Below, piece after piece: positions 4,095-22,748 of a stretch of DNA of 22,748 nt; the stretch's first letter is position 1, and the number at the start of each line of letters is the position of its first letter. Under the pieces are notes generated by a model, which saw nothing but the letters and a program-made list of their open reading frames with translations, searched no databases and was not told the DNA's origin. This DNA comes from a virus. Its lineage: Duplodnaviria > Heunggongvirae > Uroviricota > Caudoviricetes. Location: positions 1-22,748 of the IMG/VR virus record IMGVR_UViG_2671180674_000012. One strand, 5' to 3'. The translations under genes were made by a program, and so were the position numbers.

Positions 4095-4584
4095 TATCGC
4101 GTCCTCAACAATGAATTTTGTGATGCGGTGCCTGGTGCCTCCAGGTGACGTTAACCAGTTAACAATTAACGCCGGAATACAGGGACCCGCCTGCAAGTAC
4201 CTACCCATAAGTATTGATACGGAGAACAAATGGTCTTTTAACTGTTCCGCGTGCGCTTAGCCGCATTCACCACATCACAAAATTCACTTTAAAAAGGGCG
4301 GACATCAGCCAGCAATTAAACTGATGCCGCCAAAGGTCAATACTCAACATGGAGTGTTGTAGCGGGGTTGTCACTTAAGCGTATGGTCAACCTGCCAACC
4401 CGGTGCCACAATGGGGTAAGGATAACCCCGCCATACTTACCGCCGCGCCATTTCGCGGATTGCCACAACCGGAAGCGCACGGTCGAAGAAATCTAACGAC
4501 AAGACTTCTAAGGAAAAGAAACCTTCGCCGTGCGCTTTCGTGTTGTGTGCCTGCTTTTAACCACATCAGGCGAGGTGGTTCCTG

Positions 4585-4615
4585 TTGTTCCCCAACAACA
4601 AGAAATTTGTATAAT
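4585..4615 (+). promoter_or_regulatory. Putative sigma70 promoter for the antisense moron (TTGTTC -35, consensus TATAAT -10 at 4610-4615)
   Basis: Perfect TATAAT about 28 nt upstream of the ATG at 4643; -35-like hexamer with a 19-nt spacer (slightly long). Confidence 0.35.
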
Positions 4616-4642
4616 CCGGATACCCCAACAACACAGAGAAGA

Positions 4643-5161
4643 ATGCTATCTGGAATAACTTCATCAATAACGGCAATTAAAGTCTCGATTGATTTATTAC
4701 AGGTAATACTTGATGCAAAAAGCCAATCTGAACGTGAAAAGGCTGTCTACGAAATGCGTCGCCAACTGGCAGACTTACAAATACAGAACGCAGAGCTAGC
4801 GAAAACGCTCGCGCTTCAGTACGAGGAAATACTCTTGCTTAAGCAAAAATGTCATGAAATTGACGAGCGTAATCGAAAACTTGAATGCTATACGATACAC
4901 AAAACTGGTTTTGGGCATTTTGTCTATGCTTTCAGGAACAGCCTCGACGAAGAAGACACATGTTTTCACTATGCCTGTCCCAATTGCTATCAGCATGGTG
5001 TAATAGCAATACTTCAACCTGTTAAAATTGGTGAGCATGATAAGTTCCATATTTCTAAATGCCTGAAATGTGATTCGCGCTTTAAATTTGAACGCAATGA
5101 TGACTATATACCGCCCCCATCTGAAGAAGAGATAGGTAGAGCATTGAGCAGCAATCCGTAG
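4643..5161 (+). CDS. Hypothetical protein, predicted coiled-coil N-terminus and C-terminal CxxC...CxxC zinc-ribbon-like domain; moron antisense to the early-left operon
   Basis: 172-aa ORF from ATG 4643; the Arg-rich N-terminal extension in the ORF track (from 4403) looks non-coding. CPNCYQHG and CLKCDSRF motifs; lower GC than flanks; own promoter-like element. Confidence 0.55.
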   Translation: MLSGITSSITAIKVSIDLLQVILDAKSQSEREKAVYEMRRQLADLQIQNAELAKTLALQYEEILLLKQKCHEIDERNRKLECYTIHKTGFGHFVYAFRNSLDEEDTCFHYACPNCYQHGVIAILQPVKIGEHDKFHISKCLKCDSRFKFERNDDYIPPPSEEEIGRALSSNP

Positions 5162-5323: not shown

Positions 5324-5959
5324 TTACCCTTTAAACCAGTCAATCCAGAGCGGATAGTGTTCAGCATAAATATAGCTATACACATCCAGGTTGTATTTGC
5401 GGTCTGTCCTTAGCAGGTCGCAAATACAGGCCGCAGCTTCCAGGGCAGCAGCTTTGTTGCTGAATAACCATGTAGCAACATTCCGGCGATTATCTGTATC
5501 CCACTCTTTTGTGAGGGCTGACACCACGAAGGAGCCGTTGGTGTTGCCATCAAATACTTCCGTTTCCAGATTTTTAAGTAATGCCTGGTGAATTTTTGCC
5601 AGGTATTCAGTCGGAATTTCGCCACGAATTCGGATAAGTTTGTCATAAACAAACATGTTCCCCGCATATGGCGATTTTTCTTTCTTTTGTTCACTGGCAG
5701 GCTGGTCAATTTCGTCTTCGGTTGGTTTCGTATTGATGTTTTGCACTGTCGTTTCTGCAATTTTCTTTGCCACACTCTCTGAGTCGTGTTTATTTACAGG
5801 CGCACAGGAATACAGTCCGACAAACGCATCTCGCACATTTCGAGCCATATTATCAGTGTCTTTTTTCGTTACCGATTCCAATGCAAGTTCGTTCAGACGT
5901 TGACGTAGTGTGTGTACTGCAATCTCCTGGATTGATAGCGATAAATCTTTAAATTCCAT
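5324..5959 (-). CDS. Hypothetical early-left protein (211 aa)
   Basis: ATG at 5959 with GAGGT RBS, 11 nt downstream of the preceding gene's stop (operon arrangement). No family recognised. Confidence 0.55.
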   Translation of the reverse strand: MEFKDLSLSIQEIAVHTLRQRLNELALESVTKKDTDNMARNVRDAFVGLYSCAPVNKHDSESVAKKIAETTVQNINTKPTEDEIDQPASEQKKEKSPYAGNMFVYDKLIRIRGEIPTEYLAKIHQALLKNLETEVFDGNTNGSFVVSALTKEWDTDNRRNVATWLFSNKAAALEAAACICDLLRTDRKYNLDVYSYIYAEHYPLWIDWFKG

Positions 5960-5970
5960 CGTTAACCTCA

Positions 5971-6123
5971 TCAGTCAGTATTTCTGGCTAACCAGCGACG
6001 CGCGCCAGCTTCGGTTTTAAACGTTTTGCTTTTTGTATACGTCATCGCGGTGAACGTGCCGTCCTGGTTTGGGAACACGCCGTATACCAGAGATTCGTTG
6101 TTGCCAAGATCGATAGTATCCAT
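5971..6123 (-). CDS. Small hypothetical protein (50 aa), first gene of the early-left operon
   Basis: ATG at 6123 with GAGGT RBS, immediately downstream of the pL-like promoter; product MDTIDLGNNESLVYGVFPNQDGTFTAMTYTKSK... Confidence 0.4.
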   Translation of the reverse strand: MDTIDLGNNESLVYGVFPNQDGTFTAMTYTKSKTFKTEAGARRWLARNTD

Positions 6124-13868: not shown

Positions 13869-14206
13869 GAAGGAAACAAACAGAAACAACAATTGCCGTT
13901 ATCTGTTGCCACCAATGACAAGTAAACGTATCTCAGGCGAGCGCATTGCGCCGTTCTGACGCGGATACATTAGCCTGGGCAGAAGGTTCTGGCAATAAAA
14001 AATAGCGTTTTCTTATCGGTGTCGGTAAGATTGTTGCGGGTGCTTGAGGCTGTCTGCCTCGGGCATGCCACTGTAAGGCAGACAGAGAAAAGCCCCAGTT
14101 AACATCACGCGTCCTGCAAGACGCTTAACATTAATCTGAGGCTCAATCCATGCTGAACACATGTAGGTTAGCCTCTTACGTGCCGAAAGGCAAGGAGAAG
14201 CAGGCT

Positions 14207-14362
14207 ATGAAGCAGCAAAAGGCGATGTTAATCGCCCTGATCGTCATCTGTTTAACCGTCATAGTGACGGCACTGGTAACGAGGAAAGACCTCTGCGAGG
14301 TACGAATCCGAACCGGCCAGACGGAGGTCGCTGTCTTCACAGCTTACGAATCTGAGGAGTAA
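14207..14362 (+). CDS. hok: Hok/Gef-family type I toxin (HokD/RelF-like membrane peptide)
   Basis: Product MKQQKAMLIALIVICLTVIVTALVTRKDLCEVRIRTGQTEVAVFTAYESEE is near-identical to Hok/Gef peptides as I recall them; AAGGAG RBS; structured leader and own terminator. Confidence 0.8.
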   Translation: MKQQKAMLIALIVICLTVIVTALVTRKDLCEVRIRTGQTEVAVFTAYESEE

Positions 14363-16184: not shown

Positions 16185-16559
16185 ATGGGGATAGAATTTG
16201 TTTTGCCTTACCCGCCGACGGTAAACACCTACTGGCGACGCCGTGGCAGCACATATTTTATATCGGAAGCCGGTAAGCGTTATCGCCGTGATGTGGCACT
16301 TATAGTTCGCCAGCAGAGGCTGAAATTAAACCTGTCCGGAAGGCTGGCGATAACGGTTATTGCCGAGCCTCCGGATAAGCGCCGTCGTGATCTGGACAAT
16401 ATCCTGAAAGCGCCACTGGATGCACTGACACATGCGGGGTTGCTCATAGACGATGAGCAGTTTGATGAAATCAATATTGTGCGCGGTCAGCTCGTTCCTG
16501 GTGGGCGGCTGGGCGTGAAGATTTACGAAATAATGCATGACGGGCAGGTCCAAAAATGA
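16185..16559 (+). CDS. rusA: RusA-family Holliday junction resolvase
   Basis: LPYPPTVNTYWRRRG...PPDKRRRDLDNILKAPLDALTHAGLLIDDEQ matches the RusA signature; AGAGG RBS. Confidence 0.85.
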   Translation: MGIEFVLPYPPTVNTYWRRRGSTYFISEAGKRYRRDVALIVRQQRLKLNLSGRLAITVIAEPPDKRRRDLDNILKAPLDALTHAGLLIDDEQFDEINIVRGQLVPGGRLGVKIYEIMHDGQVQK

Positions 16560-17377
16560 AACTGGAAGATTTACCGAAATACTATTCCCCAAAATCGCCA
16601 GGCCTGACTGATGTATCCGCCTCGACGTCAAAAGATGCACTGAGTATCACTGATGTGATGGCTGCGCAGGGGATGACACAGAACCGGGCTGAGATGGGAT
16701 TTTCTGCGTTCCTGGGGAAAATGGGTATTAGTATGAATGACAGGGTGCGGGCAACAGAATTACTGACAGATTATGCATTAAGTCAGTGCGATCGTGTGGC
16801 GGCGTTAAGGAAACTTCCGGCAGAAATAAAACCGGCAGTGATGCGTATTATGGCTTCGTATGCTTTTGAGGATTATGCCCGCAGCGCAGCGAGTAAAAAG
16901 CAGTGCCCTTGTTGCCATGGGGAAAAATTTATTGAAAGCGAAGTTTTTACAAACAAGGTTCAGTATCCGGATGGTAAGCCGCCAGTATGGGCAAAGTGTA
17001 CAAAAGGCGTGTATCCGTCTTACTGGGAAGAATGGAAAAAAATCCGGGAGGTGGTGAAAGTTTCCTGTCCTGAATGTAAAGGGAAGGGGGAGATCTCCAC
17101 TGCCTGTAAAGACTGCCGTGGGCGTGGTGTTGCCATTCATCGTGAAGAGTCAGAAAAACGGGGTATGCCTGTTATCAGGGGCTGCCGGCGTTGTGGCGGT
17201 CGTGGCTATGAAAGACTGCCATCAACGGAGGCATTTAATGCCATATGCAAAGTGACGAGTGCTATCACGCTTGATACATGGAAAAAATCAGTGAAACGCT
17301 TTTACGATACGTTGGTGGTTCGGTTTGACATTGAAGAGGCATGGGCGGAGCGGCAGTTAAAGATGGTAACGCGATAG
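16556..17377 (+). CDS. Putative late antiterminator (Q-like) with four CxxCxGxG zinc-finger repeats
   Basis: ATGA overlap with rusA; CPCCHGEKF, CPECKGKG, CKDCRGRG, CRRCGGRG; positioned directly upstream of a promoter/terminator pair. Identity as Q is inferred from position. Confidence 0.55.
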   Translation: MKLEDLPKYYSPKSPGLTDVSASTSKDALSITDVMAAQGMTQNRAEMGFSAFLGKMGISMNDRVRATELLTDYALSQCDRVAALRKLPAEIKPAVMRIMASYAFEDYARSAASKKQCPCCHGEKFIESEVFTNKVQYPDGKPPVWAKCTKGVYPSYWEEWKKIREVVKVSCPECKGKGEISTACKDCRGRGVAIHREESEKRGMPVIRGCRRCGGRGYERLPSTEAFNAICKVTSAITLDTWKKSVKRFYDTLVVRFDIEEAWAERQLKMVTR

Positions 17378-17382
17378 TGTTG

Positions 17383-17410
17383 TTGATTTTTCCCGAATCT
17401 GTGGTAAATT
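17383..17410 (+). promoter_or_regulatory. pR'-like late promoter
   Basis: TTGATT (17383-17388), 16-nt spacer, TAAATT (17405-17410), immediately after the Q-like stop. Confidence 0.4.
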
Positions 17411-17458
17411 CGCCCTAACGATGGGCGTTTTGTGCCTGACGTTAGCGTGATTTCTACA

Positions 17459-17481
17459 ACCCGCCAGCGAGCGGGTTTTTT
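17459..17481 (+). terminator. tR'-like terminator downstream of the late promoter
   Basis: Short GC stem (CCGC/GCGG, loop CAGCGA) followed by TTTTTT; an earlier hairpin CGCCC/GGGCG with TTTT lies at 17411-17431. Confidence 0.5.
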
Positions 17482-17642
17482 GTTGTGATAGATAACAACT
17501 CCAGGTGGCATTCATTAGTGAATATTAGTTAATGTGTGCTGCCATGCGTTAAAAGATGTCAATTCGTTATTGACCGATATCAAATTATGGAAAGATGAAT
17601 TTCATTACTATTGAAAATCCGTTGTTTCAATAGGTGATATTT

Positions 17643-18359
17643 ATGCATAAACTAATTAAGCTGTTTTCATTTTTTATTGCACTATCGATATCTCAGTGTT
17701 ATGCCACTAGTAATGAATTCATAAGCGCCAGTAACAGTAGGGCATTTTCATTTTTTTTGCCTACAGGGCAAGCAATGGCTATCCAGTATCTTGATGGACT
17801 TAAAAGATATTCAGCGAGTGAGATTATAGACGATTTCAATAATAATGAATTGAGAGCAAAGAAAAAGTATAAAGATATATTCATCATAAACTCAACAGCG
17901 CGGGCGATTAAGCAAGACCTTGATGATAGGTTTTTTGTTCTGCTAAGGGATGGTAATAGTGGATTTGAATCGTTTTATGCTTACTATGATAAGAAATCAG
18001 AAGGTGACTTAGAGTTTCTTAACGAAGGTGATAATGTGGAGTTTATTTGCTCCAATGTTAAAAACATCATTATGCCAAGAGCGGAATGTTTTTCTATCGC
18101 TTTAAATCTTGAATCTAAAAATATTCAGGGAAACCCTATAAGATTTTTTGATAATGCTTATAAGTTGCAAAACACTTATAAGGCTACAAAAATAACATTT
18201 ATACTTTATTCTCTTCTGAAGGATAAAATTGAAAAGGACTGCGAAGAATCTATTGAAGCATGCAACCTGGCTGCCAGGAGGTTTACGGATAATGGCGCAT
18301 TACTTGACTCCATGCTTGAACCTTATGCGGATATGTTAAGTAAAATCGGTAACAATTAA
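17643..18359 (+). CDS. Secreted protein with Sec-type signal peptide and OB-fold (tRNA_anti-like) domain; AT-rich cargo
   Basis: AGGTGA RBS 5 nt before ATG; N-terminus MHKLIKLFSFFIALSISQCYA; central region resembles the tRNA_anti-like OB-fold pattern from memory; markedly AT-rich. Confidence 0.55.
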   Translation: MHKLIKLFSFFIALSISQCYATSNEFISASNSRAFSFFLPTGQAMAIQYLDGLKRYSASEIIDDFNNNELRAKKKYKDIFIINSTARAIKQDLDDRFFVLLRDGNSGFESFYAYYDKKSEGDLEFLNEGDNVEFICSNVKNIIMPRAECFSIALNLESKNIQGNPIRFFDNAYKLQNTYKATKITFILYSLLKDKIEKDCEESIEACNLAARRFTDNGALLDSMLEPYADMLSKIGNN

Positions 18360-18481
18360 CAAGGTTACATTCCAGGCATCCTGCCAGGGCTGCTTTTTTT
18401 ACCTCATTTACATCTATTGCTTGCTGGCTTTTTGGACAAGAGTTATTGGTATGTCACGTTAACCAGAAAAGGAAAAAAGAC

Positions 18482-18679
18482 ATGCTAAAACAGCAGGATA
18501 TGACCGAAACCGCCAGAGTGGTGTTTAATGAGTTAAGCGTCACCGAACCGGCGACCGTCGGGGAGATTGCACAGAATACTTACCTTTCACGCGAACGCTG
18601 CCAGTTAATACTGACCCAGCTTGTTATGGCGGGTCTGGCAGATTATCAGTTCGGTTGTTACAGACGCCTTTCGCAGTGA
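18482..18679 (+). CDS. Small HTH/winged-helix-like protein (65 aa), possible controller-type regulator
   Basis: ATG with AAAGGA RBS; TVGEIAQNTYLSRERCQLILTQLVMAGL is HTH-like; directly upstream of the methyltransferase. Confidence 0.45.
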   Translation: MLKQQDMTETARVVFNELSVTEPATVGEIAQNTYLSRERCQLILTQLVMAGLADYQFGCYRRLSQ

Positions 18680-18692
18680 AGGCTTTTTTATT
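18665..18692 (+). terminator. Putative terminator overlapping the HTH gene stop
   Basis: GCCTT-loop-AAGGC followed by TTTTTTATTT. Confidence 0.4.
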
Positions 18693-18829
18693 TGTGGTAA
18701 TGGGCGGCTGGTGGGTGTTAGCGGCACCTGCCAGCCATCTGCTCATGCGTTGGGGTCACAAGCAAACCTCAGGCCCATCTGCTTTGCGCAAAAGCGGAAT
18801 GAGCCTATCAGAGAAGTGCTTATTGATCT

Positions 18830-19876
18830 ATGATTAATACTGTAAAAATATCCAGTTGTGAGTTAATCAACGCTGATTGCCTGGAATTTATCCAGACCTT
18901 ACCGGAAAACTCTGTCGATCTGATAGTCACAGACCCGCCATACTTTAAAGTGAAGCCCGAGGGCTGGGATAACCAGTGGAAGGGCGACGCTGATTACCTG
19001 CAATGGCTGGACCAGTGTCTTGCGCAGTTTTGGCGGGTATTAAAACCCGCCGGAAGTCTTTACCTGTTCTGTGGTCATCGCCTGGCATCTGACACCGAAC
19101 TCATGATGCGTGAACGTTTTAATGTGCTGAACCACATTATCTGGGCGAAGCCGTCCGGACGCTGGAATGGGTGCAACAAGGAAAGCCTGCGGGCGTATTT
19201 CCCGGCAACAGAGCGCATTCTGTTTGCCGAACATTATCAGGGGCCATACCAGCCCAAAAGTGACGGTTATGCAGCAAAGGGGCGCGAGCTTAAGCAGCAT
19301 GTCATGGCCCCGCTGATTTCTTACTTTCGTGATGCGCGCGAATCACTGGGGATAACGTCAAAACAGATAGCAGAAGCCACCGGAAAGAAAAACATGGCTT
19401 CGCACTGGTTTGGTACCAGTCAGTGGCAGTTACCGAATGAGGCCGATTACAGTAAACTGCAGGCGCTGTTTGCACGTGTGGCGGCAGAAAAACACCAGCG
19501 CGGTGAACTGGAGCAGCCACACCACCAGCTGGTCAGCACATACAGCGAACTGAACCGGCAATATGCCAGCCTGCTGGAGGAATACAAATCACTGCGGCGT
19601 TATTTTTCCGTATCGGCTGTCGTTCCTTATACGGATGTCTGGACGCACAAGCCCGTGCAGTATTATCCGGGTAAGCATCCCTGTGAAAAACCGGCGGATA
19701 TGTTGCGTCAGATAATTACTGCCAGCAGCCGTCCAGGCGATTTGGTCGCAGATTTTTTTATGGGGTCGGGGTCGACAATAAAAGCGGCACTGTCGCTGGG
19801 ACGCAGGGCGATTGGCGTGGAACTGGAAGAGGAACGTTTTAATCAGACGGTCAGAGAAATAACGAAAGATTTTTAA
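18830..19876 (+). CDS. DNA methyltransferase, N6-adenine/N4-cytosine type, beta-class motif order
   Basis: DPPY catalytic motif near the N-terminus (LIVTDPPYF) and AdoMet motif FFMGSGST near the C-terminus; 348 aa. Confidence 0.85.
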   Translation: MINTVKISSCELINADCLEFIQTLPENSVDLIVTDPPYFKVKPEGWDNQWKGDADYLQWLDQCLAQFWRVLKPAGSLYLFCGHRLASDTELMMRERFNVLNHIIWAKPSGRWNGCNKESLRAYFPATERILFAEHYQGPYQPKSDGYAAKGRELKQHVMAPLISYFRDARESLGITSKQIAEATGKKNMASHWFGTSQWQLPNEADYSKLQALFARVAAEKHQRGELEQPHHQLVSTYSELNRQYASLLEEYKSLRRYFSVSAVVPYTDVWTHKPVQYYPGKHPCEKPADMLRQIITASSRPGDLVADFFMGSGSTIKAALSLGRRAIGVELEEERFNQTVREITKDF

Positions 19877-19984
19877 TTCAGTGATGATATAAGTTGTATA
19901 TTTCTGATACAGATGTATACACATATTTAAAACTGAACACCAAATATATTTTTGATGCCCACACAATCATTGTTAGTATTTGTG

Positions 19985-20008
19985 ACGACCTGAAGGTGGT
20001 CGTTTTGT
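19985..20008 (+). terminator. Putative terminator after the methyltransferase
   Basis: ACGACC/GGTCGT stem with 7-nt loop followed by a T-rich tract. Confidence 0.4.
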
Positions 20009-20433
20009 GTTCACAGGGTGTTAATACCACCGGAAAGGTCAGTGCTGACTTCCTGGTGATCAGTTTGTTGATTCAGTAATAACCGGTCAGCAGTGTGATT
20101 CCGGAAGTCAGCATTTTATGTGTGAGGGTAATTTCTGCTACCCGCACTGGTAAACAAATGAGGCATATCGTTTCAGCACTGGCGAGTTTCGCGGAGAACA
20201 GGTTTTGCAAGCGCCTTTGTCGTTCTTCATTCTGTAATATCTGACTGATTACAGTTTCGGTGCTGTTTTTTACATTGTTAACGTTGTGTATCATCGGATG
20301 GTTTTTATCAGAATGAGTCGCTGCCTGTTTCGGGGTCTGTGATTCGTCAGAATTACGTTGCAGGCTGACGAATCATTCTGGTAGTAACCATACAATTAAA
20401 CGCTGTCTAATTCTTATACGATGAATGCTTTGG

Positions 20434-20459
20434 GCCCGTCTCATGACGGGCATTTTTTT
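20434..20459 (+). terminator. Rho-independent terminator closing the repeat-rich noncoding segment
   Basis: GCCCGTC-TCAT-GACGGGC followed by ATTTTTTT. Confidence 0.5.
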
Positions 20460-20556
20460 ATCCGTGCGCAATGCCTGTTCTGTTATGGCATTTTTCATCT
20501 TTTCCCGGTTGGCTATTATTATGTTTTATTTTTCTGTATACAGGAGAATTGAGACT

Positions 20557-21048
20557 GTGATCACATATGCAGACATTCGGGCAAAGCAGGCTGAAATTCA
20601 GGAGGCCAGACAGGAGTACATCCAGCGACTGCGGGATATGGCAAAAAGGCTGGTCAAGACCTATGAAGACTCACTGGCATTGCCGAAACCACGATGGCTG
20701 GATATTGAGGGTAACTCCCATCCCTATGTTTATCTTTCTCATGATAGTTGTTGTGAGAAACCGGAGGATTTGCAGGTAGATTTTCAGGATGGGGTTACTT
20801 TTAATTTATATACGGTTGTTGATGATGATCCCCGCCAGTCTGTAAGTGTGAATATTACAGTGAGTATTCTGTTACTTGATGGCGACAACATGACGATTTC
20901 GGTTGATGGTTATCAGGCCAGGACATTTTCGCATGTGGATACCAACGCAAAAATTAATGAAGTGTGCGAATACATTAAAGACAGCATACTTATGTCAATG
21001 AATGAAGTGACGTTTGGCAAAAAATCCCTTTCAGAAGTGAAAGGGTAA
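20557..21048 (+). CDS. Hypothetical protein (163 aa)
   Basis: GTG start with AGGAG 10 nt upstream (the ORF-track start at 20425 lies inside the terminator and has a hydrophobic junk-like N-terminus); followed by its own terminator. Confidence 0.5.
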   Translation: MITYADIRAKQAEIQEARQEYIQRLRDMAKRLVKTYEDSLALPKPRWLDIEGNSHPYVYLSHDSCCEKPEDLQVDFQDGVTFNLYTVVDDDPRQSVSVNITVSILLLDGDNMTISVDGYQARTFSHVDTNAKINEVCEYIKDSILMSMNEVTFGKKSLSEVKG

Positions 21049-21083
21049 ACCAGCTGACACTCCGCTGATTCAGAAAATTATCA

Positions 21084-21108
21084 GGCTGCGCACGTGCGTG
21101 GCCTTTTT
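21084..21108 (+). terminator. Putative terminator after the 163-aa gene
   Basis: Imperfect stem GGCTGCG/CGTGGCC around the palindrome CGCACGTGCG, followed by TTTTT. Confidence 0.4.
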
Positions 21109-21245
21109 CATATCTGCGCCACGCCCGGCGCACATCAAAAAACCACAGAGCCTTTCAGGGGGGAGCTTACGGGATGGTCAGTGTGACTTTCTCTGTGGGC
21201 TGCTCATCCCGGGGCGAGGCTCACCCACTAAAAGGAAAAGTCACG

Positions 21246-21671
21246 ATGTTTGGTATTTTCAAAAAGAAAACCCGTAAGGCTATTACTGAAGTGAAGAAAA
21301 TGGAGAACCGCGACGCGGTGGAGGCGACCGTCTGGGGCGCGTATTCCATTGCATACGCTGACGACACCTGTGACGCGAAAGAAATTGCGGTACTGGAGAA
21401 AACCATTGCAGCACTTCCTGCCTTTGCGCCGTTCTCCGGTGAGATTGCCCAGATGAGCGCGAATATCCGCGCCCGTTATGAAGCATCGCCGCGTTCTGCC
21501 AATGCTGAAGCCCTCCGTCAACTGGCTGATGTCGCCGGTACTGATGATGCCGTTAATGTGCTGTGCCTGTGTCTGGATATCGCAGACCAGGATGGCATTG
21601 GTCCGGATGAAGAAGCACAGCTCAAGAAAATTGCTCAGGCGCTGCAGTTACCGCTGGAGCAGTACCTGTGA
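21246..21671 (+). CDS. TerB-like (tellurite-resistance TerB family) protein
   Basis: 141-aa product with AAGGA RBS; helical, acidic composition and motifs (EIAVLEKTIAALP, VNVLCLCLDIADQDGIGPDEEAQLKKIAQAL) resemble the TerB fold from memory. Confidence 0.6.
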   Translation: MFGIFKKKTRKAITEVKKMENRDAVEATVWGAYSIAYADDTCDAKEIAVLEKTIAALPAFAPFSGEIAQMSANIRARYEASPRSANAEALRQLADVAGTDDAVNVLCLCLDIADQDGIGPDEEAQLKKIAQALQLPLEQYL

Positions 21672-21826
21672 AAAGCGCACGCCTTGCGCTGGCTGCCGTC
21701 CTGCTGTTTCTGGTAGTGGCGGTGGATTTCACCGGACGGCTGATGTCGGTACTGGCTGATGGTGTACTGGTGGCGATGGCGCTGGTCGTGCTCCGGCCTT
21801 TATTCCGGAACAAAAACAACAGCTGA
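21668..21826 (+). CDS. 52-aa hydrophobic peptide, start overlapping the TerB-like stop
   Basis: GTG at 21668 overlaps TGA at 21669-21671; product VKSARLALAAVLLFLVVAVDFTGRLMSVLADGVLVAMALVVLRPLFRNKNNS has two hydrophobic segments. Absent from the ORF track because it is under 60 aa. Confidence 0.35.
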   Translation: MKSARLALAAVLLFLVVAVDFTGRLMSVLADGVLVAMALVVLRPLFRNKNNS

Positions 21827-21834
21827 TTATTTGA

Positions 21835-21862
21835 GCGGGCATTGAAAGCCCGCTGCATTTTT
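21835..21862 (+). terminator. Terminator between convergent genes
   Basis: GCGGGC-ATTGAAA-GCCCGC followed by TGCATTTTTA; overlaps the stop codon of the minus-strand DUF4145 gene. Confidence 0.45.
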
Positions 21863-22541
21863 ATTGCTGCTGTTCCTTAATGCGTTCCGGTAGCACAAAT
21901 GCCACTTCAAGGAACAGGCGGAGAAACGCCACAAACTCTTTTGCCTGTTCACCACTGGCCTCGAGCTCGTGCACAGCCTCATTGCCTTCCATACGGATTC
22001 GGTGAGCCCAGTTTCTCATTGATTCCGTCAGTATGCCGTCCTGCCGTGCCAGTTCAATGCGTGACAGCAGATTGCCTTTTTCGTACCCCAGGGCACGGAG
22101 GGCAACCTCGAGGACGCTACGGCAGCCAACAATGATACGCGGGGCGGTTCTGCCGGACCGAACATCCTCCTGCAACTCGGTGAAGACTGCGCGAATTTTT
22201 TCGGGATAGTGGGGGGAGTCATCGGGCAGCCTGAGTTCAGGATAGATTTTGATGCTTCCCTCAAGTGGAGCATTCAGCACCCAGGCTTTGTTGTTGATGG
22301 CTTTTTTCATGTCCACCAGTTCACTGACTGAACATTCGAATGCGATCATTAATGGGTTGTTACATTCTGTGCAAAAGTCTGTTGAGTATGCTTTTGCTGA
22401 TGTTATTTCAGAGGTGCGCGGCTGTTGCACGTAAAGCTTGTTTTCTGTAGCCGGGCGCCTGCTGTGGTACTGGGTGACCTCATTCAGAGAAATATGAACC
22501 TGATGAAGGCAGTACGGGCATCTAATTTTCAGGGAGTACAT
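21861..22541 (-). CDS. Zinc-ribbon plus DUF4145-domain protein
   Basis: ATG at 22541 with AAGAGG upstream; N-terminus MYSLKIRCPYC...CTECNNP; C-terminus matches my recollection of DUF4145 (RSVLEVALRALG...NWAHRIRMEGNEAVHE...FVLPERI). The ORF-track extension to 22730 lacks an RBS. Confidence 0.6.
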   Translation of the reverse strand: MYSLKIRCPYCLHQVHISLNEVTQYHSRRPATENKLYVQQPRTSEITSAKAYSTDFCTECNNPLMIAFECSVSELVDMKKAINNKAWVLNAPLEGSIKIYPELRLPDDSPHYPEKIRAVFTELQEDVRSGRTAPRIIVGCRSVLEVALRALGYEKGNLLSRIELARQDGILTESMRNWAHRIRMEGNEAVHELEASGEQAKEFVAFLRLFLEVAFVLPERIKEQQQ

Positions 22542-22748
22542 ATGACCTCTTCGACAGAAGTGATAACTGAATTTGAAAATTGCATAGCAGATTCTGCCAT
22601 TGATTCTGTAGCAGCGATAGAACGAAGGTTTGCTGCTGCTCAGACCCGGTATGGTCATGATGCAGCCGTCAAAGGGCTGGCAATGGCGTTTGTTATTGCG
22701 GAGAACCGCCGTCGCTTTATTGAAGCGCAAATGACACTAAAGCAATAA
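22542..22748 (+). CDS. Small hypothetical protein (68 aa), divergent from the DUF4145 gene
   Basis: ATG 22542 with AGGGAG SD at 5-nt spacing; product MTSSTEVITEFENCIADSAIDSVAAIERRF... ; the window ends at its stop codon. Confidence 0.5.
   Translation: MTSSTEVITEFENCIADSAIDSVAAIERRFAAAQTRYGHDAAVKGLAMAFVIAENRRRFIEAQMTLKQ

Follow-up and report, generated by a model that had tools for sequence, protein, structure and literature searches.

The 5.3 kb downstream of the Q antiterminator gene (17486-22748; the window is the whole stretch of DNA analysed, 22,748 nt) are a known accessory ("moron") slot of a lambdoid, E. coli-type prophage, running from Q to the lysis genes. The slot is ordinary and the combination of cargo in it is new: it is a mosaic of a common backbone and three rare, cleanly bounded insertions, one of which is a rare two-gene module whose predicted zinc-finger RNase is distantly related to the anti-phage protein RAZR. 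We consider this explanation likely, namely a late-promoter-proximal accessory region between Q/pR'/tR' and a lysis cassette that very probably lies, judging from aligned relatives, just past the window end. As a whole the island is unsurprising, being one more cargo combination in a slot that is already familiar as a site of Stx toxin and other morons, and of all its units only the RAZR-like pair is worth an experiment.

Table 1 Features of the region (positions in the window).
Feature	Position	Strand	Basis or detail
Q antiterminator, 273 aa	16556-17377	+	PF03589 1e-49; phrog_127
Candidate late promoter pR'	17383-17410	+	TTGATT-16 nt-TAAATT, TGn upstream of -10; by eye
Two tR'-like hairpin + U-run terminators	17411-17427; 17458-17477, T-run to 17485	+	-10.0 and -11.2 kcal/mol
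OB-fold moron, 934-bp insertion, ~34% GC	17486-18419	+	Replaces 58 bp in EC12
Secreted OB-fold gene, 238 aa	17643-18359	+	Signal peptide + OB fold
Hairpin + U-run of the OB-fold unit	~18374-18402	+	Hairpin analysis
Winged-helix protein (wHTH), 65 aa	18482-18679	+	phrog_331 1e-37; weak TrmB match
Beta-class N6-adenine DNA methyltransferase (MTase), M.EcoGII family, 348 aa	18830-19876	+	PF01555 4e-44; PADLOC MTase_II 4e-152
Noncoding tRNA slot	19877-20556	+	Relatives carry tRNAs here
Decayed 3' half of tRNA-Gly(UCC)	~20107-20152	+	Alignment with relatives
Terminator-like hairpins in the tRNA slot	19984-20004; 20434-20451	+	Terminator scan
163-aa protein	20557-21048	+	GTG start, AGGAG upstream
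Terminator of the 163-aa ORF	21083-21104	+	Terminator analysis
TciA, TerB domain, 141 aa	21246-21671	+	PF05099, phrog_632
TciB, DUF3927, 52 aa, two TM helices	21668-21826	+	PF13064, phrog_1470
Hairpin between convergent DUF3927 and DUF4145 genes	21834-21861		-16.0 kcal/mol on +, -15.0 on -; U-run on + strand
226-aa protein, Cys4 zinc ribbon + DUF4145/HEPN (RAZR-like)	21861-22541	-	Antisense to late operon
68-aa partner gene	22542-22748	+	ATG abuts ATG of zinc-finger/HEPN gene (CATATG)

The slot between Q and the lysis genes

A first-pass annotation had described the region as a cargo island lying where lysis genes would be expected, in the slot in which Stx phages carry stx. That location agrees with the published arrangement (PMC8065619), and the genes and coordinates listed at the time hold, with corrections, in domain and profile searches. 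The lysis genes, however, have not been displaced by cargo. Domain and PHROG searches found no holin or endolysin domain within 17486-22748, because the window stops exactly at the stop codon of the 68-aa gene; PADLOC turned up no other defence genes elsewhere in the window. In the two closest relatives, strain C5 and L019, homology reaches the final base of the window and an intact holin-holin-M15 endolysin-terminase series starts 93-95 bp later. C5 matches 18419-22748 at 95%, and 93 bp further on it encodes two holins and an M15 peptidase; L019, a draft-genome locus, shows the gene order in full (Q, OB-fold, wHTH, MTase, tRNAs, 163-aa-family gene, TerB, DUF3927, DUF4145, 68-aa gene, holin, holin, endolysin, Nu1). 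The source DNA is available to 22748, and the downstream lysis cassette is taken from relatives at 89-95% identity.

Both edges of the cargo are sharp. Strain PapRG-04-4 carries only wHTH, MTase, tRNA and holin, with 71 bp in place of the equivalent of ~20464-22748 (2285 bp in C5); the cargo boundary against it coincides exactly with the window end, and the common lysis module resumes at the next base. On the left, strain EC12 shares the Q and wHTH genes of the window and has the short replacement segment where the OB-fold unit sits, and its homology stops exactly at 17485. The identical Q allele of EC12 and SC407 is named "antitermination protein" in RefSeq.

The candidate promoter after Q, which we infer to be pR', scores 8/12 against consensus, below the threshold of our promoter scan. 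Every plus-strand unit is followed by a hairpin and U-run; eight such structures stand at unit ends (-7 to -16 kcal/mol), and the terminator scan returned 17 sites against 6.8 +/- 2.7 in shuffled sequence (~2.5x expectation), which bears out the earlier claim that the units have terminators of their own. A consensus scan found promoter-like sites to be no commoner than chance (9 versus 9.5 +/- 3.0 expected). The scan gave one candidate upstream of the 163-aa ORF (20492-20519), from a count at chance level, and no minus-strand promoter for the DUF4145 gene. From this layout we infer the timing of expression. In the lysogen, transcription from pR' would end at tR' (17458-17485), and the eight intrinsic terminators would insulate the units, so that only those with their own, putative, promoters would be expressed. 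Upon induction, Q-modified RNA polymerase would pass all terminators over ~5.3 kb to reach the holin, transcribing the plus-strand genes as late genes en route.

Common backbone and rare insertions

Among 5426 complete E. coli genomes, >2000 partly match the region, mostly at the wHTH-MTase segment. The TerB/DUF3927 pair occurs in 366 (~90-kb plasmids included), the OB-fold unit in 9, the DUF4145 cassette in 6 and the 163-aa unit in 3. The backbone, present in prophages of 366 to >2000 of these genomes and also in Stx phages, thus consists of the wHTH and M.EcoGII-family MTase genes, a tRNA slot that is decayed here, and P1-type TciA/TciB; the OB-fold gene, the 163-aa gene and the antisense cassette are the rare insertions. 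The units vary independently among relatives: besides PapRG-04-4, EC12 has no OB-fold, 163-aa or DUF4145 unit, and three further loci (L017, L018 and L020) are each missing one or two units, the DUF4145 cassette in every case. The earlier view of the units as insertions holds in part, for the OB-fold unit and the right-hand block. About half of the "cargo" (wHTH + MTase, the tRNA slot and TerB + DUF3927) is conserved, annotated backbone of related prophages, which in part refutes the earlier reading on its own terms. Its description of AT-rich segments also holds in part. Three segments fall below the 48% GC of the window outside them, the OB-fold unit at 34%, the noncoding block at 40% and, weakly, the 163-aa ORF at 43%, whereas the MTase, TerB, DUF3927 and DUF4145 genes lie at 51-58%. 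Finally, where no unit had seemed assignable, functions can be proposed for three: the M.EcoGII-family MTase, P1 TciA/TciB and a RAZR-like HEPN RNase.

The signal peptide of the OB-fold protein, identified by eye, is MHKLIKLFSFFIALSISQCYA, ending before TS. The protein matches PF12869 below the cutoff (E = 5e-4), and homologues do carry this domain; only eight homologues were found, and homologues at 64-70% identity are full-length. As a low-confidence guess, a periplasmic protein of this kind could act in lysogenic conversion or envelope exclusion.

The wHTH gene, labelled "TrmB family transcriptional regulator" by PGAP, is always upstream of the MTase gene, and a terminator (18666-18683) overlaps its stop codon. 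The MTase follows the beta-class order of DPPY, target-recognition domain and FxGxG (DPPY at residues 35-38, F(F)MGSG at ~310) and is 86% identical to the enzyme of phage 1720a-02, which has been named very similar to M.EcoGII, a non-specific adenine DNA methyltransferase from E. coli O104:H4 prophages (PMC5778455). We thus place it by sequence in the M.EcoGII family, through the 1720a-02 enzyme rather than M.EcoGII itself. Presumed to be non-specific, it would probably place broad adenine methylation on progeny DNA in the late phase of infection and so help the phage to evade restriction.

What had been read as a noncoding repeat block is a phage tRNA slot with a decayed tRNA-Gly. Its direct repeats are short and weak (at most 19 nt), and we rejected that reading. 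ARAGORN detected no tRNA in the block, and no Rfam family matched it at E <= 1 except for a chance match to Lambda_thermo. Relatives have tRNA-Gly at this slot, or tRNA-Thr and tRNA-Gly, or three tRNAs, the last called Ile/Arg/Arg by PGAP and Met(CAT)/Arg/Arg by ARAGORN. The start of the 163-aa ORF that follows agrees with the point at which conservation among homologues begins. Its product, predicted from the model to be an alpha/beta protein, has no domain match in Pfam, PHROG, NCBIfam or PADLOC; the family keeps frame and length at 66-76% identity with a confident AF2 fold, and the L019 member is called at 194 aa. The tciA and tciB genes are translationally coupled through an overlapping GTGA, and TciA is 85% identical to TciA of phage P1. 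They would form a membrane-associated TerB pair, with tellurite, colicin or phage resistance suggested by homology only.

The zinc-ribbon/HEPN gene and its divergent partner

The DUF4145 protein noted in the first-pass annotation is present, and we corrected its length to 226 aa with an N-terminal zinc ribbon; the adjoining 68-aa gene was missing from the earlier list. The RefSeq gene model in C5 is 162 aa against the conserved 226 aa and is likewise corrected here. C8, C11, C57 and C60 are kept without exception by 17 homologues, the AF2 model shows a beta-strand ribbon that would bind zinc, and the HEPN domain of the family has an invariant Rx7H. In a comparison with a profile of the family, RAZR (PD-T7-4, PDB 9Y9C) matched at E = 3e-7, and the catalytic motif R-x-x-G-N-x-A-V-H lined up, R183/H191 of the window protein falling on R146/H154 of RAZR. 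The PADLOC PD-T7-4 model matched the HEPN part only (E = 5.9e-4, 17.4 bits), so that by PADLOC the protein is not a PD-T7-4 member, and none of ten family relatives is a true member either (<=32 bits). The family is large, with 2385 cluster representatives at E <= 1e-3. Another candidate relative, DS-38 (DefensePredictor; WP_001313577.1, 366 aa), was rejected; it has an N-terminal HEPN and C-terminal multiple zinc fingers, the reverse order, and is unrelated in sequence.

RAZR assembles around phage ring proteins and causes abortive infection through RNA cleavage (PMC13017515; Zhang et al., Nature 2026). The 226-aa product most likely works in the same way: its N-terminal zinc ribbon would sense an assembly of phage proteins, and the HEPN domain (R183/H191), thereby activated, would cleave RNA, so that infections by competing phages are aborted.

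A partner of 68-78 aa lies head-to-head with the HEPN gene from Escherichia to Paraburkholderia, the two start codons 0-2 nt apart, with the RNase gene always antisense and the partner always along the phage operon. This geometry is the same in the Q-to-holin slot, in the Rz-to-terminase slot of lambdoid prophages of Salmonella and of an environmental genome (L010), as well as in a Mu-like prophage of Paraburkholderia. The 68-aa protein had no match in Pfam, PHROG, NCBIfam or PADLOC, retains 41% identity as far as Paraburkholderia, and its gene differs from that of Salmonella at 8, 11 and 43 sites by codon position. No exact match to the cassette junction was found in species-representative genomes, and a profile scan returned only 3 loci. 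The partner is intact in all loci checked except one group (L014), where it is a pseudogene beside an intact HEPN gene.

The partner has the orientation of the phage operon and would therefore be made once the prophage itself enters the lytic cycle. We hypothesized that the pair is an undescribed two-gene, RAZR-type immunity variant adapted to prophage life, a proposal to which we assign a low probability. The lysogen would make the RNase from the antisense strand as a guard against superinfecting phages; after induction, late read-through would yield antisense RNA across the RNase gene together with the 68-aa protein. By inhibiting the RNase, that protein would keep the prophage's own portal or other ring assemblies from triggering suicide. 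The fixed geometry of the pair fits this proposal. Alternatively, the pair could function as an addiction or toxin-antitoxin module, or combine a toxin with its transcriptional regulator, and so stabilise the prophage rather than sense phages. We regard this as unlikely, though it deserves some weight: classical type II pairs are co-transcribed and not head-to-head, RAZR, the closest characterised relative, is a phage-triggered single-gene defence, and an intact HEPN gene next to a partner pseudogene argues against an essential antitoxin.

It is very improbable that the units form one integrated defence island with cooperating parts, whether an R-M-like pairing of MTase and DUF4145 or a Ter-linked pairing of TerB/DUF3927 and DUF4145. 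DUF4145 domains are indeed known as fusions to R-M and TerD systems or as members of their operons (PMC3710099), and the DUF4145 gene directly adjoins the MTase gene in the L014 group and TerB/DUF3927 in the window. The distributions of the units are nevertheless independent (>2000, these being partial region matches, versus 366 versus 6 genomes), for which reason we rejected a functional coupling of TerB and DUF4145 of the kind described there. The cassette also occurs with neither MTase nor TerB adjacent in Salmonella, L010 and Paraburkholderia, each unit is terminated separately, and the DUF4145 gene is oriented the other way. It is likewise very improbable that the 163-aa, 68-aa and OB-fold ORFs are non-functional remnants and the hairpins chance structures: the first two are without domain matches and belong to taxonomically narrow families, but the third-position bias and long-range identity of the 68-aa gene, the preserved frame, length and fold of the 163-aa family, the full-length OB-fold homologues and the excess of terminator-like sites over shuffled expectation all speak against it. 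That the prophage is defective, with cargo in place of its lysis module, is also very improbable: holin and endolysin domains are missing from the region and the decayed tRNA gene indicates some erosion, but C5 and L019 continue from the final base into intact lysis genes, and against PapRG-04-4 the shared lysis module resumes at the next base.

Comparison with known systems

The layout of the region is that of the Stx and lambdoid phages 933W, phiP27 and 1720a-02, which share Q, tR', a small wHTH gene, a ~350-aa MTase, a tRNA slot, variable cargo, holin and endolysin; nucleotide identity to such phages over the wHTH-MTase segment is 86-92%. In Stx phages Q-wHTH-MTase is followed by tRNAs or stx and then the lysis genes, and the cargo is transcribed together with the late genes (PMC8065619). 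The window differs in having no stx or nanS-p and decayed tRNAs, and in carrying the OB-fold gene, the 163-aa ORF, TciA/TciB and the zinc-finger/HEPN cassette. Its MTase (348 aa) falls in the size class of M.EcoGII (349 aa), and the two share the beta-class order of motifs and a location in prophages. As in P1, a TerB-domain TciA is followed by a DUF3927 peptide, and both adjoin phage tRNA genes; P1 has tciA-tciB-tciC flanked by tRNA genes, with functions annotated by homology only, whereas no tciC was seen in the window.

Measured against the morons defined in HK97 and HK022 (PMC3594210), the units are presence/absence insertions with exact boundaries (in the EC12, PapRG-04-4 and L017/L018/L020 comparisons) and their own terminators, and the OB-fold unit has deviant GC. 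Unlike those morons, most units are without deviant composition, and their own promoters are putative, the scan being at chance level.

The domains of the 226-aa protein follow the order of RAZR: a Cys4 zinc ribbon at the N terminus, then a conserved linker and, at the C terminus, a DUF4145/HEPN domain. As with PD-T7-4, its carrier is a mobile element. Overlap with an integrase gene is frequent among PD-T7-4 homologues, whereas this family is antisense inside prophage operons. RAZR is a single-gene system, and the RAZR literature examined makes no mention of a divergent partner gene; the family described here has a conserved one, which offers a direct route to how a prophage with an abortive-infection RNase avoids self-triggering in its lytic cycle. 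Similarity to RAZR is limited to the linker and HEPN domain: in sequence the zinc-ribbon region shows no resemblance to the zinc-finger domain of RAZR and gives no alignment to 9y9c, and the protein has ~37 extra residues ahead of the catalytic R/H dyad. Its trigger may therefore differ from that of RAZR. The compact, cloneable 0.9-kb cassette (21830-22748) thus represents a sizeable, distant sister family of RAZR whose different zinc-ribbon sensor may recognise different phage triggers.

The Q-to-lysis region and the lysis genes

The window is an Escherichia-type lambdoid prophage in which an integrase ORF at the left is followed by a RecE-like exonuclease, a cI/cro-like region, replication genes, hok/sok, DUF968, RusA and Q. 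None of the 5426 complete E. coli genomes searched carries the whole window, and the best matches reach 63% coverage (identity 92-95%), in keeping with the make-up of a mosaic prophage. An integrase-like ORF on the minus strand (1-1020) has its stop codon at the very left end (1-3). Two ORFs in the early-left region (4403-5161, +, 252 aa; 5324-5971, -, 215 aa), one opposite in strand to its neighbours, have no Pfam or PADLOC match and may be further cargo. Upstream of DUF968-RusA-Q, positions 14038-14362 hold a type I toxin-antitoxin locus, hok/sok; its sok RNA (14038-14212; Rfam RF01794, 114 bits) overlaps a hok-like ORF (14150-14362), and hokD is annotated at the same position in relatives.

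All genes that the first-pass annotation listed in the 5.3 kb stretch 3' of Q (17486-22748) were found. PF12869 is also on record for homologues of the OB-fold protein.

Features from Q to the right end of the window
Feature	Position	Strand	Remarks
Q antiterminator	16556-17377		PF03589, 1e-49
Secreted OB-fold protein	17643-18359		signal peptide judged by eye; PF12869 weak
Winged-helix protein (wHTH), 65 aa	18482-18679
N6/N4 methyltransferase (MTase), 348 aa	18830-19876
Noncoding stretch	19877-20556
163-aa ORF	20557-21048
TerB protein	21246-21671		translationally coupled to DUF3927 peptide
DUF3927 peptide, two TM	21668-21826
DUF4145 gene, 226 aa	21861-22541	-
Partner ORF, 68 aa	22542-22748	+

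The first-pass annotation had also proposed that cargo displaces the lysis genes, and no holin or endolysin domain occurs within 17486-22748. E. coli C5 aligns to 18419-22748 as a single piece at 95% identity, and its annotation continues past the window end with 'putative holin', 'phage holin family protein' and 'M15 family metallopeptidase', the first starting 93 bp after the equivalent of 22748. A draft-genome locus (L019) matches the complete gene order at 89-90% nucleotide identity, reading Q(273)-OB(238)-wHTH(65)-MTase(348)-tRNA-Thr/Gly-163-aa family and then TerB-DUF3927-DUF4145(226, antisense)-68 aa-holin-holin-M15 peptidase-Nu1-terminase. Displacement is not supported, as both C5 and L019 run on into holin-holin-M15 peptidase. 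In strain PapRG-04-4 the tRNA slot is followed directly by holin, and C5 has 2285 bp where PapRG-04-4 has 71 bp. The lysis module common to these two strains restarts one base past the window's last base, so the end of the window and the right boundary of the cargo coincide. Judged from these alignments, the absence of lysis genes is very probably an edge effect of the window end. The 68-aa gene has its stop codon in the last three bases (22746-22748), which also mark the right cargo boundary relative to PapRG-04-4. Just 3' of the C5 terminase genes, in the expected portal place, a 478-aa gene (L001 20454-21890) is named 'anti-CBASS protein Acb1 family protein', a label that may be a naming artefact.

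Backbone and insertions

Parts of the stretch were found in 2304 of the 5426 genomes and, among phages, in 47 records, most of them Stx-converting. The core common to these relatives is wHTH plus MTase, followed in phage 1720a-02 by stx2 and the S-R lysis genes, and in PPyecE_EH1910 by a toxin-antitoxin pair, TciA/TerB, nanS-p, holin and endolysin. E. coli EC12 has the same Q allele, then wHTH, MTase, three tRNAs, TerB, DUF3927, holin and lysozyme. The Q-to-lysis slot was correctly named as a cargo site, since Stx phages keep stx there under pR' control (PMC8065619).

Against this background, the OB-fold unit (17486-18419) stands out as 934 bp inserted in place of 58 bp in EC12; it starts one base past the tR' T-run and stops after its own terminator. 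It occurs in 9 of the 5426 genomes, the 163-aa unit in 3 and the DUF4145 cassette in 6, against 366 for TerB/DUF3927, some on plasmids of about 90 kb. Three further loci (L017, L018 and L020) carry the units in different combinations, which indicates that units move independently. The proposed cargo island therefore holds for these three real insertions, but its foreign share was over-stated, as wHTH-MTase and TerB-DUF3927 are widespread. GC content is 34% in the OB-fold gene, 40% in the noncoding block and 43% in the 163-aa ORF, compared with 48% in the rest of the window and 51-58% in the other genes of the stretch. In a Salmonella prophage (L007, 12597-14196), an OB-fold homologue occupies the Q-to-MTase slot beside an ORF6N gene, and homologues of the zinc-finger/HEPN pair sit in the lysis-to-terminase slot; these cargo genes recur together, in differing slots.

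The noncoding block had been called a repeat block, a poor description given that its repeats are short and it holds a tRNA-Gly remnant. ARAGORN found no tRNA in the window, and an Rfam search returned nothing at E <= 1 except one chance match. At the same place, relatives carry tRNA-Gly(UCC), tRNA-Thr plus tRNA-Gly, or three tRNAs (Ile/Arg/Arg by PGAP, Met(CAT)/Arg/Arg by ARAGORN), and alignment to C5 revealed that of tRNA-Gly the window retains just the 3' half, in degenerate form (about 20107-20152). The block is a decayed, hairpin-rich tRNA slot. The Rfam match taken as chance lies outside the block, at the TerB/DUF3927 junction (21671-21703); it is weak (20 bits, below the gathering score of 50; E = 0.49) and points to the lambda cIII thermoregulator.

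The window TerB protein is 85% identical to TciA of phage P1, whose tciA-tciB-tciC lie between tRNA genes, much as TerB/DUF3927 follows the tRNA slot in lambdoid prophages. In P1 (L024, 69348-71008), tRNA-Asn and tRNA-Thr are upstream and tRNA-Ile downstream. A block of tRNAs plus tciAB may have been exchanged between P1-type and lambdoid phages. The P1 tci genes bear the putative annotation 'tellurite or colicin resistance or inhibition of cell division (by homology)'.

Separate termination of the units was borne out: terminator-like sites number 17 against 6.8 ± 2.7 in shuffled sequence, and folding placed a hairpin and U-run (-7 to -16 kcal/mol) 3' of each unit. Promoter-like sites were not enriched (9 against 9.5 ± 3.0 expected). 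In the lysogen, terminators would hold the units apart transcriptionally; upon induction, Q-modified polymerase would override them.

The MTase (METHYLTRANSFERASE) shows DPPY and FxGxG, motifs of the beta class, and is 86% identical to the 1720a-02 enzyme, which has been called very similar to M.EcoGII (PMC5778455). According to that paper, M.EcoGII is encoded by a prophage and methylates adenine independently of sequence; it is silent in the lysogen, and its constitutive expression is harmful. The window MTase gene lies 3' of Q, beyond a terminator overlapping the wHTH stop codon, a placement that fits expression in lytic growth only, when the enzyme might shield progeny DNA from restriction. 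Together, these data are best explained by an ordinary Q-to-lysis accessory region, in which a common late-expressed backbone carries three rare morons (the OB-fold, 163-aa and DUF4145 units).

The zinc-ribbon/HEPN gene, its partner and RAZR

The DUF4145 gene of C5 (L001 12457-12945, RG28_RS31875) is 162 aa in RefSeq/PGAP, with the zinc-ribbon domain left out. We prefer the 226-aa reading because it is supported by 29 homologues, many of which have 226-236 aa and align at full coverage (45-78% identity), and the L019 gene call agrees; GAGG lies 4-5 nt upstream of the 226-aa ORF's ATG. No promoter was found for this putative RNase gene when one was sought. Its ATG abuts that of the 68-aa partner on the opposite strand (CATATG).

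In Salmonella lambdoid prophages, the same head-to-head pair separates the lysis region from Nu1 terminase (both proteins 73% identical to the window's); it lies between Rz and small terminase in an environmental lambdoid prophage, and between gemA/mor and DUF3164 in a Mu-like Paraburkholderia prophage (partner 41% identical, 16 invariant positions). It also occurs in Trabulsiella, Pantoea and Budvicia, in the last between Q and holin as in the window. In the L014 group, the zinc-finger/HEPN gene directly follows an M.EcoGII-like MTase and the partner is a pseudogene, reduced to 32 aa beside an intact RNase gene in L014, L015 and L016 (about 5913-6011). Between the window and Salmonella partners, substitutions fall 8/11/43 at codon positions 1/2/3; of the codon changes, 31 are synonymous and 17 non-synonymous. 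This indicates a protein-coding ORF under purifying selection. Pfam, PHROGs, NCBIfam and PADLOC gave no match to the partner. In every locus with readable phage context (L007-L010, L012, L014, L022, the window, C5 and L019), the RNase gene is antisense and the partner co-directional with the surrounding phage genes. We consider it improbable that the partner gives the prophage self-immunity against the RNase.

The family of the window protein comprises 2385 cluster representatives at E <= 1e-3; among sequenced phages, no relative exceeds 33% identity. DS-38, a validated HEPN plus zinc-finger system, was rejected as its identity, being unrelated and reversed in domain order. The closest comparison is RAZR (formerly PD-T7-4), which joins a Cys4 zinc-finger domain that sets specificity to a DUF4145/HEPN RNase (R146/H154), and which forms a 24-mer around portal or recombinase rings of phages, whereupon it cleaves RNA and aborts infection (PMC13017515). 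The window protein shares this architecture, although its zinc-ribbon region fails to align. The PADLOC PD-T7-4 model scores it at 17 bits, through the HEPN part alone, and ten relatives at <= 32 bits. A 51-sequence family profile has RAZR chain 9y9c_OA as its best PDB sequence (E = 3.4e-7), aligning RleGNeAvH on RIVGNQAVH such that the invariant R/H fall on R146/H154. On sequence grounds the protein thus appears RAZR-like, yet falls outside PD-T7-4 by the PADLOC model. We lean slightly towards the RAZR-like pair being an anti-phage RNase system, and it is the only part of the stretch that merits experiment.
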